NCBI RefSeq assembly: GCF_055900595.2
Contig: NZ_CM148325.1
Length of the DNA stretch: 64,000 nt
Strand: one strand, 5' to 3'
Shown: positions 51,201 to 54,200 of the stretch, in pieces
Layout of the letters: each line of letters opens with the position of its first letter
Position numbering within the stretch: the stretch's first letter is position 1
Program-made: the position numbers

Positions 51201-54200
51201 AAGACGCACCAACCGAAGTTTGGGGCACACATTTTACCGCGCGAATTGCGCCAGACGCGATCAACAAATGGTTAAGTGGATTTTTCTCCCGCGAAGTGCA
51301 ATTGCGCTGGGTGGGGCCACAAATGACCCGGCGCGTGAAACGCCACAACACTGTACCTCTGTCATTTGCTGATGGCTATCCTTACCTTCTTGCTAACGAA
51401 GCCTCGTTACGTGATCTCCAACAACGTTGTCCGGCCAGTGTAAAAATGGAGCAATTCCGCCCCAATCTGGTGGTTTCCGGCGCGTCAGCCTGGGAAGAAG
51501 ATAGCTGGAAAGTGATTCGTATTGGTGATGTGGTGTTTGATGTGGTTAAGCCTTGCAGCCGCTGTATTTTCACCACCGTCAGTCCGGAAAAAGGACAAAA
51601 GCATCCGGCAGGTGAACCATTAAAAACATTGCAATCTTTCCGAACAGCCCAGGATAACGGCGATGTCGATTTTGGTCAGAATTTAATTGCCCGTAATAGT
51701 GGCGTGATTCGCGTTGGCGACGAGGTGGAAATTCTTGCAACGGCTCCGGCGAAAGTTTACGGCGCAGCTGCCGTGGACGATACCGTCGACGCCGCGCAGC
51801 AACCGGACGCAAATGTAGATATTGACTGGCAAGGGCAGGCATTTCGTGGAAATAACCAACAGGTGCTGCTGGAGCAATTAGAAAATCAGGGAATTCGTAT
51901 CCCTTATTCTTGCCGCGCGGGCATTTGTGGAAGCTGCCGTGTTCAGCTTTTAGAAGGCGAAGTCACACCCCTCAAAAAATCAGCAATCAGCAATGATGGC
52001 ACCATTCTTTGCTGTAGTTGTGTGCCGAAGACTGCGCTTAAACTAGCGCGTTAAACTGCCTGTTCGAGGCTGAAACTGTCAACATTAACCTGCGGTTTCA
52101 GCCTGTCATTCATGATTTTGATGGCGTCCCCCAACTGCATCGCGCGACCCGCAATAACAACGCAGGGTTGTGCCAGCAGGCACAGTGCGGCATTTTCGCC
52201 AGATTCAACGACCAGCAAATTGACCTGCTCGTAAGTGTCGCTCAACCAAACGCAGGCCGCATCGCCCGGCATGGGCACCCACATTTCACCATGGGAAACA
52301 AAATGCCAGCTTTTCGGCATTTGTGGTTTGAGATAACGAATTGCTACCAGTGCATTGAGCACCAGTTCGGCTTTTTGTTCTTTGGATAAATTAAAATCGC
52401 GGCACTTTTCTTCAAACGAGAAATAGAGCGCGGCGTCGTCAACGCAAAAGCCTGCGGGAGAAAAGGCATCTGGAGTCAACATTTTGCGCGCAAAACGTGA
52501 GCGAAATAGCATACCATTGGCTAAATCGAGCATCATTCGATCGTGCTCTTCATCGTAATACCAACGCCAGTTATCGTCTGGTTTAATTCGCATTTGCCTC
52601 TCCCCTACCCTATAAAACCGCAGCAACACAATCCATTGTCGCTTCGCTTAATAACCTCAACAATAAAAGTACAAAATGTCTAAATAAGCAACAGCGATGA
52701 ATATAAAACAACCAGGGCTTAAAATAAAGCCCTGATTATCTTATAAAGAGAAATTCAAAGAAATAATTAGATATGGTTAACGATTTCTTTAATCAGCGGC
52801 GGTCCTTTAAAAATAAAACCAGAATAAATTTGCACCAGTGAGGCCCCCGCAGCAATCTTTTCACGCGCAGCAATAACCGAGTCAATGCCGCCAACACCGA
52901 TGATCGGTAAGCGACCGTTTAATTCCTGTGACAAGCGGCGAATAATTTCTGTGCTTTTTAACTGAAGCGGACGACCACTTAAGCCACCGGTTTGATCACA
53001 ATTTTTCATTCCCTGAACCAGAGAACGATCGAGCGTGGTATTGGTTGCAATAACGCCATCAATATTATGGCGAACTAAACTATCGGCAACCTGGATCAAT
53101 TCTTTTTCAGAAAGATCCGGCGCGATCTTCACTGCGATCGGCACATATTTATGGTGCATCGCTTGCAAATCATTTTGCTTATTTTTAATCGCGGTTAAGA
53201 GATCATCCAGCGCTTCGCCATATTGCAGTGTGCGTAGTCCTGGGGTATTCGGCGATGAAATATTGATGGCGATATATCCCGCATAAGCATAGATTTTTTC
53301 CATACAAATCAGATAGTCATCTTTACCCTGCTCCACCGGCGTATCTTTATTTTTGCCGATGTTAATACCCAGGACGCCATCATAATGGGCTTTTTTTACG
53401 TTCTCTACGAGGTTATCAACGCCAAGATTATTAAAGCCCATACGGTTGATCAAACCTTCGGCATCTACCAGACGAAAGAGACGCGGCTTGTCATTACCTG
53501 GCTGTGGACGTGGCGTGACGGTACCGATCTCGATAGATCCAAACCCCATCGCGCCTAACGCGTCAATGCACTCCCCGTCTTTATCAAGACCGGCTGCCAG
53601 ACCAAGCGGATTTTTAAACGTCAGGCCCATGCAGTTAACAGGTTTCGCAGGCACTTTCTGCCGCACCAGTGCTTCAAACGGCGTTCCGGTAATGCGGCGT
53701 AATTGCTGAAAAGTAAACTCATGAGCGCGCTCTGGATCGAGCTGGAAAAGGGCTTTACGAACGAAGGGGTAGTACATGAACTCTCCTGGATTCCCGGTGT
53801 GCAAACCGGGGGCGTATTATGTGCGAGTTCGGACTAAAAGGGAATTGACCTGTGGCAAAAAATAGCAAACGTTTTCTTATTGCGCTTTTTTTATGCTTTT
53901 TTTGGCTTTTCTTCCTCAGATAAATCATTTCGACTCGCGGGCCACCTCTGTCAGACTGACCGAATTGTTATCAATGTTAACAAAACAAGAACAATTGGTT
54001 ATAAGGAGAGAGTATGCGTGTCATCACCCTGGCGGGTAGTCCTCGCTTTCCTTCTCGCTCCAGCTCCTTGCTGGAATATGCGCGGGAAAAACTGAATGGC
54101 CTGGATGTAGAGGTTTATCACTGGAATCTGCAAAACTTCGCCCCGGAAGATCTGCTCTATGCCCGTTTCGATAGTCCGGCGCTAAAAACCTTCACCGAAC

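Follow-up and report, generated by a model that had tools for sequence, protein, structure and literature searches.

Whether a gene cluster that is missing from one strain was lost there, or was never present, is the question raised by the junction between pyrD and ssuE. The two genes are direct neighbours in the DNA described here, and in Escherichia coli K-12 the elf/ycb fimbrial operon lies between them (ELF denotes the E. coli laminin-binding fimbriae). An earlier note on this DNA offered two explanations, an ancestral island-free state and a precise deletion. We compared the junction with its K-12 counterpart, with complete E. coli genomes, and with the same locus in other enterobacteria.

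Structure of the pyrD-ssuE junction

In the window, by which we mean the whole 64-kb stretch of DNA that was analysed, the ORF list places pyrD and ssuE in divergent orientation with a spacer of 236 bp (53778-54013), exactly the coordinates that the earlier note had given for their adjacency. The features of the junction are listed below in their order along the window.

52767-53777, minus strand: pyrD, quinone-dependent dihydroorotate dehydrogenase, 336 aa, with its ATG at 53777 (ORF list; 99% identity to K-12 PyrD)
53772-53845, minus strand: PyrD leader, a 5' cis-regulatory element with a hairpin (Rfam RF02373, 98.1 bits against a gathering threshold of 47, E = 1.3e-17)
53778-53876, no strand: pyrD-proximal part of the gap, common to K-12 at approximately 96% identity (BLAST alignment to the K-12 locus)
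53863-53878, plus strand: predicted PUR box, a PurR operator-like palindrome, TAGCAAACGTTTTCTT, with 2 mismatches to the consensus
53877-53945, no strand: 69-bp spacer, apparently ancestral and missing in elf-positive alleles (K-12 BLAST and outgroup alignment)
53920-53930, plus strand: conserved block ATAAATCATTT, 84-94 bp upstream of the ssuE ATG and inside the 69-bp spacer
53946-54013, plus strand: ssuE-proximal part of the gap, common to K-12, with the presumed core promoter, leader, and Shine-Dalgarno sequence of ssuE (BLAST against K-12)
53965-53979, plus strand: conserved block TTGTTATCAATGTTA, found at no more than 2 mismatches in 47 of 62 species
54014-54589, plus strand: ssuE, NADPH-dependent FMN reductase, first gene of ssuEADCB, with its ATG at 54014 (ORF list; 99% amino acid identity to K-12 SsuE)

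The PyrD protein starts with MYYPFVRK, and both genes are annotated as pyrD and ssuE in the RefSeq genome of strain Z0117EC0005, which has the identical sequence and carries no annotated feature in the spacer. Three mechanical ORFs of 48-71 aa reach into the gap, all of which run into pyrD or ssuE and none of which is annotated, in agreement with the earlier description of a gap without an ORF of its own.

Comparison with K-12 ER2796 revealed the gene order pyrD, ycbF, ycbV, ycbU, elfG, elfC, elfD, elfA, ssuE, with the start codons of pyrD and ssuE 7,255 bp apart; this annotation matches the K-12 map given in the earlier note, with a fimbrial operon between the two genes. BLAST alignment of the two alleles places the breakpoints at 53876/53877 on the left, where the PUR box core (GCAAACGTTTTC) ends, and at 53945/53946 on the right, 68 bp 5' of the ssuE ATG. 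The alleles have flanks of 99 bp on the pyrD side and 68 bp on the ssuE side in common, and the K-12 island of 7,087 bp (ER2796 locus L001, 10101-17187) is inserted exactly at the uninterrupted site, where the window has 69 bp. The gap in the window is not equal to the two K-12 flanks simply joined, as the central 69 bp have no counterpart in the alignment with K-12. In elf-positive genomes, 42% of the 236-bp gap query aligns, at 96% identity.

The GC content of the island is 46.5%, compared with 51.7% for its flanks in K-12, and the values in Escherichia sp. E1V33 are 46.5% and 51.2%. The annotation of the K-12 island contains 7 fimbrial genes only, with no integrase, transposase, or adjacent tRNA. 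Short direct repeats at the junction, which the earlier note had proposed to look for, were searched at the ends of the K-12 island (10101 and 17187), and neither direct nor inverted repeats bracket it; the repeats detected around the island are chance matches or internal paralogy of the two chaperone genes. A resemblance seen by eye between TTTTCTTAT, just past the PUR box in the window, and TTTTCTTGT, at the right end of the K-12 island (9 of 11 positions), is at chance level for T-rich DNA and was discarded. Compared with an integrative mobile island, the K-12 insert has the shift in composition, and lacks the integrase, the repeats, and the tRNA target.

A tblastn search with the seven K-12 Elf/Ycb proteins (E <= 1e-3) gave no match anywhere in the 64-kb window, and the same run found PyrD, ZapC, SsuE, and SsuA there at 96-99% identity. 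Sensitive local alignment of the 69-bp spacer with both strands of the K-12 island gave a score of 25, below the shuffle mean of 29.6, which rules out an elf remnant in the spacer. The clean absence of the operon, as read earlier from the sequence, is borne out by both results. Relocation of the fimbrial genes, the circumstance that could have overturned that reading, was addressed by megablast with a chimeric query that joined 1.5 kb of ssuD/ssuC specific to this lineage to 1.2 kb of K-12 elfC; this search detects copies of at least ~85% identity and bears on the chromosomes of matching strains. The elf-positive genomes, as the positive control for the query, show two places each. The eight chromosomes with 100% identity to the window rank first, and each gives a single match, in the ssuD/ssuC part, so the chromosomes of this lineage carry no elfC at megablast sensitivity, and no sign of relocated fimbrial genes was seen.

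Distribution and polarity of the two alleles

Of 5426 complete E. coli genomes, 1352 (24.9%) contain the whole 236-bp gap; in the remainder it is split into two places. K-12 elfC is present in 4036 of these genomes (~74%), at a median of 1 place in each. Together the two counts account for 5388 of the 5426, as expected of mutually exclusive alleles, and 38 genomes have neither. The identity of elfC is as low as 90-95% in 438 E. coli genomes. Decay of elf was also observed in some strains, as an IS1 insertion in elfC or a truncated elfC (H61 and H80).

The junction of CFT073, a reference strain of phylogroup B2 (NC_004431.1, 1048454-1048689), has the same gene order, orientation, 236-bp gap, and 69-bp spacer as the window, with 6 mismatches in the gap, 3 of which are within the 69-bp spacer. 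The two strains differ in lineage, cryptic clade I (ST485) versus B2, and their flanks are ~3-6% divergent. The assignment to clade I comes from the comparison of window positions 30000-53700 with the 5426 genomes, in which 8 are at least 99% identical and all others, including K-12, O157:H7, and extraintestinal isolates, are at ~97.0-97.7%. Strains that match the window at 100% include 100117, E400634, and E500002, which a genome announcement types as "Cryptic" or "Cryptic I", ST485, OND:H45 (PMC13064198). The window therefore most likely represents an ST485-like strain of cryptic clade I, a clade sampled here by one lineage (ST485).

These genomes also bear on the simplest objection, namely that assembly of the source genome had collapsed the operon or left it out. 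The junction is identical (100%) in eight independent complete genomes, the gap is intact in all 1352 genomes counted above, CFT073 among them, and the elf operon is a single-copy, non-repetitive sequence; the probability of such an artefact is negligible.

The polarity of the difference was analysed in an outgroup set of 80 loci with 10-kb flanks, obtained by a PyrD scan of species-representative genomes. In 62 of the 80 loci, ssuE directly adjoins pyrD, the two being separated by 227-259 bp (median 247). This adjacency is found in Citrobacter, Enterobacter, Klebsiella, Kluyvera, Kosakonia, Leclercia, Lelliottia, Cedecea, and Serratia, and also in three Escherichia lineages, one of which is E. 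whittamii. An elf-like operon occupies the site in only three loci, those of Escherichia sp. E1V33 and two Pseudocitrobacter species. The 69-bp spacer is 87-90% identical in three elf-free Escherichia species (loci L004, L006, and L007), and parts of it are kept in Citrobacter, Enterobacter, Klebsiella, Kluyvera, and others. Other Enterobacteriaceae are similar to the window in the divergent pyrD and ssuE, the PyrD leader, the PUR core, ATAAATCATTT, and TTGTTATCAATGTTA, and differ from it in the central 69 bp, which are only 51-65% identical outside Escherichia, with the blocks TTTATGC and ATAAATCATTT kept. E. albertii retains the first 40 bp of the 69-bp spacer, followed by a deletion that removes ssuEADCB.

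Since the elf-positive alleles are without the 69 bp and the outgroups have them, a deletion of elf cannot recreate this sequence; and since it is kept in other species and genera, it is ancestral intergenic DNA that was lost from the elf-positive alleles. The window accordingly shows both features of the island-free haplotype known from CFT073 and B2, a gene-free divergent gap of 236 bp and a 69-bp spacer homologous to that of the outgroups. An elf-positive ancestor from which excision or illegitimate recombination removed the 7-kb operon might be suggested by the occurrence of elf at this site in K-12 and most complete genomes, which gives it the appearance of the species norm, and by the decay of elf in some strains; however, such an event is very improbable given the 69 bp homologous to outgroup spacers, the lack of any elf remnant, and the lack of direct repeats around the K-12 island that could mediate an exact excision. 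From the pair of explanations in the earlier note, the ancestral state is thus upheld and the precise deletion is not, the conservation of the spacer in outgroups being what separates them. We consider it highly probable that cryptic clade I has kept, in this spacer, the arrangement ancestral to the enterobacteria, and that the elf/ycb operon of K-12 is derived, a direction that we infer from parsimony and from the fact that the lost sequence cannot be regenerated. In the derived event, a lower-GC block of ~7.1 kb would have come in and the central 69 bp of the spacer would have gone out; the elf-positive allele is now dominant in phylogroups A, B1, C, E, and F, with the uninterrupted allele kept in B2, much of D, and clade I. 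K-12 would then represent the derived state at this locus, and an operon called absent relative to K-12 need not have been lost.

Retention could in principle have been indirect, with a clade I ancestor that carried elf regaining the island-free allele from an elf-free donor by homologous recombination across pyrD/ssu. The occurrence of the island with identical junctions in different species and another genus makes the exchange of whole alleles possible, and the reported phylogroup pattern (F with ELF; B2 and D mostly without) needs several events. Against this, the best identity of the gap outside the lineage is 97.9%, compared with 97.7% for the flanking 24 kb (window 30000-53700), and its identity to CFT073 is 97.5%, with no step in the flank identity profile near the junction. 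The gap has thus diverged along with its flanks, giving no sign of a recent import of an elf-free gap, and simple retention is the more parsimonious reading given 62 outgroups with adjacent genes, which makes this replacement unlikely. Divergent ssu haplotypes linked to the presence or absence of elf were likewise not found: the window, K-12, and CFT073 are all ~94-95% identical in pairwise comparisons of ssuE-ssuD, which rules out such a linkage among these three.

Predicted control elements at the breakpoints

On the pyrD side, the match to the PyrD leader is full length (model positions 1-74) and lies immediately 5' of pyrD, and its hairpin (53791-53812) was also detected by a stem-loop scan. 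The Rfam scan of the gap gave nothing else credible; a SNORA57 match of 14 bits was regarded as noise. For the PUR box, the consensus is the 16-bp imperfect palindrome ACGCAAACGTTTTCNT. In the 64-kb window, TAGCAAACGTTTTCTT is the only site with no more than 2 mismatches to ACGCAAACGTTTTCNT, and 2 sites have no more than 3 mismatches, compared with a shuffle mean of 1.25. The PUR core GCAAACGTTT is present, at no more than 1 mismatch, upstream of pyrD in 59 of the 62 species with direct adjacency. The consensus match and the conserved position upstream of pyrD together identify the element as a predicted PurR operator, in line with the good PUR box that had been noticed in the gap. The last two bases of the PUR box in the window fall past the breakpoint of the K-12 island. 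The K-12 box, ACGCAAACGTTTTCCG, differs at these two 3' positions and also at positions 1-2 (TA versus AC), which are within the common flank.

On the ssuE side, the block ATAAATCATTT occurs at no more than 1 mismatch in 50 of the 62 direct-adjacency spacers and is absent from the elfA-ssuE spacer of K-12 even at 2 mismatches. Unlike the window, the K-12 allele has a conserved block of its own upstream of ssuE, ATACACAAAATTTATATTTGGAATTT, of which 24 of 26 positions are kept in E1V33. A sigma-70 consensus scan of the gap revealed no promoter-like site, as might be expected of an activator-dependent promoter, and we presume that the core promoter of ssuE lies within 53946-54013. The control of ssu by Cbl and CysB has been worked out in K-12, and van der Ploeg and colleagues reportedly located, in 1999, the site at which Cbl activates the K-12 ssu promoter immediately 5' of the -35 element. 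If this position is right, the elf-positive and elf-free alleles cannot be aligned there, K-12 having ATACACAAAATTTATATTTGGAATTT at that place. ATAAATCATTT would be a candidate activator (Cbl/CysB) site.

Position-matched comparison of the ssuE upstream region with that of tauA gave a marginal resemblance for the window (22 of 300 shuffles reach the score) and no resemblance for K-12 (291 of 300). The allele-specific ssuE upstream regions of the window and K-12 are not significantly similar to each other (60 of 300).

The roles suggested for the conserved blocks come from their sequence and position. On this basis, the spacer may consist of two back-to-back control regions, the PyrD leader and PUR box on one side, and the conserved upstream block and ssuE core promoter on the other. 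The edges of the island would then lie within two promoters, one where the pyrD PUR box ends, the other at the presumed -35 element of ssuE. Models of ssuE activation based on K-12 may thus cover an upstream region that is foreign to most enterobacteria and to a quarter of sequenced E. coli.

History of the elf-positive allele and comparison with known polymorphism

The islands of K-12 and E1V33 have both breakpoints in common, and the left junction is also common to both Pseudocitrobacter loci, with the stop codon of a ycbF-like gene ~10 nt past GCAAACGTTTTC. This sharing of junctions points to one original insertion, after which the allele was sorted among lineages or exchanged between them. 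Identity between the E1V33 and K-12 islands is 78.5%, compared with 90-93% for the flanks, suggesting that the elf fimbrial genes either diverge faster than the core genome or were exchanged. The presence of the same-junction island in E1V33 and Pseudocitrobacter indicates that the island is old and able to move between lineages, and the presence of ELF in phylogroup F but not in B2 or much of D indicates that elf was gained or lost more than once in E. coli. A fuller scenario, which we put forward as speculative and rather doubtful, is that a single ancient elf insertion moved between Escherichia lineages, and even into or out of Pseudocitrobacter, by recombination in the pyrD/ssuE flanks, and in Escherichia displaced the conserved ATAAATCATTT element of ssuE. 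If so, the activator sites of ssuEADCB would be non-homologous between elf-positive strains such as K-12 and elf-free ones (B2, clade I, and most other enterics), and the two groups might differ in how they regulate the use of sulfonate sulfur.

The polymorphism of elf presence and absence is already known, and the feature in the window is an ordinary, documented one. Wurpel et al. 2013 describe Ycb as a clade-specific chaperone-usher type of phylogroups A, B1, D, and E that is mutually exclusive with the Auf type of B2 (PMC3559732). Clark and Maresso 2021 report ELF in 0 of 195 B2 strains and in >97% of the strains of phylogroups A, B1, C, E, and F, with ELF present in F and not in much of D (PMC8281228). 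A 2025 survey found ycb in ST38, and not in ST131, ST95, ST73, ST1193, or ST69 isolates (PMC12058657). For strain typing, cryptic clade I ST485 joins the lineages without ELF/Ycb fimbriae. Beyond correct annotation the significance is small, and the locus raises a modest regulatory question without representing a novel type of system. A small addition to what is published is the position of the K-12 island, which directly borders the predicted PUR box of pyrD and takes the place of a conserved element 5' of ssuE.

In comparison with the Ycb/ELF polymorphism as set out in the available sections of the two phylogroup surveys (PMC3559732 and PMC8281228), the window exemplifies the absent state already published for this locus, which has a fixed chromosomal position. 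Those sections give presence and absence by phylogroup, without the base-level junction, the displaced spacer, the polarity, or the state of clade I; the present analysis adds the junction at base level, the displaced 69-bp ancestral spacer, the polarity from outgroups, and the clade I state.

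Lineage of the strain and divergence around pyrD

The window segment 30000-53700 was compared with other genomes. It is 100% identical across 23.7 kb to strain 100117, an eatA-positive isolate of the GEMS collection belonging to ST485 and a lineage described as "cryptic", and shares about 97.0-97.7% identity with every major E. coli phylogroup, on which basis the source strain is almost certainly a member of cryptic clade I. The divergence of the ssu genes among E. coli lineages is unusually high: in the ssuE-ssuA-ssuD segment (54014-56500), all pairs among the window, K-12, and the elf-free B2 strain CFT073 are ~94-95% identical, compared with ~96.5-97% on the rlmL-pyrD side. 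Among these three sequences, this pattern showed no link to the presence or absence of the elf island, the seven-gene Elf/Ycb fimbrial operon. Within the 3' part of ycbX (51500-52000), identity drops locally: it is 93.0% with K-12 and 92.4% with CFT073, compared with 96-98% in the adjoining 500-bp bins. In addition, the rlmL-ycbX spacer of the window (50848-50944) lacks a 146-bp insertion carried by the corresponding K-12 region (6925-7167 of the ER2796 locus, L001), and the CFT073 spacer is likewise 97 bp. The K-12 insert carries CTAAGA at both edges and, judged by eye, looks like a candidate small ERIC/IRU-type intergenic repeat.

Decay and deletion at the pyrD-ssuE site

Among elf-positive strains, the usher gene elfC is interrupted by IS1 in CFS3246 (H61) and reduced to its last 19% in HS30-1 (H80); thus, the elf operon is decaying in places. 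Neither an intact pyrD-ssuE gap nor elfC was found in 38 of the 5426 complete E. coli genomes. Comparison with window 53877-58465 revealed that ssuEADCB is missing beside pyrD in E. albertii NBRC 107761 (L005) and Salmonella enterica subsp. arizonae (L013). In the former, homology continues through the first 40 bp of the ancestral spacer, to 53916, and picks up again at ~58154-58343; in the latter it ends at 53876, the left elf breakpoint, and picks up again at 58466. Thus, this one intergenic site has undergone both insertion (elf) and deletions (ssu), in separate lineages.

Elf-like operons in other species

The pyrD-ssuE site of Escherichia sp. E1V33 (L003, 2759-9900) and those of two Pseudocitrobacter loci (L025 and L026, about 2700-9900) contain seven-gene elf-like operons whose left junction is in each case that of K-12. 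Identity between the E1V33 and K-12 islands is only 78.5%, compared with 90-93% in the flanks, and proteins of the Pseudocitrobacter operons share 55-76% identity with their K-12 counterparts. These observations suggest that elf at pyrD-ssuE is a single old insertion allele, common to or swapped among species and genera.
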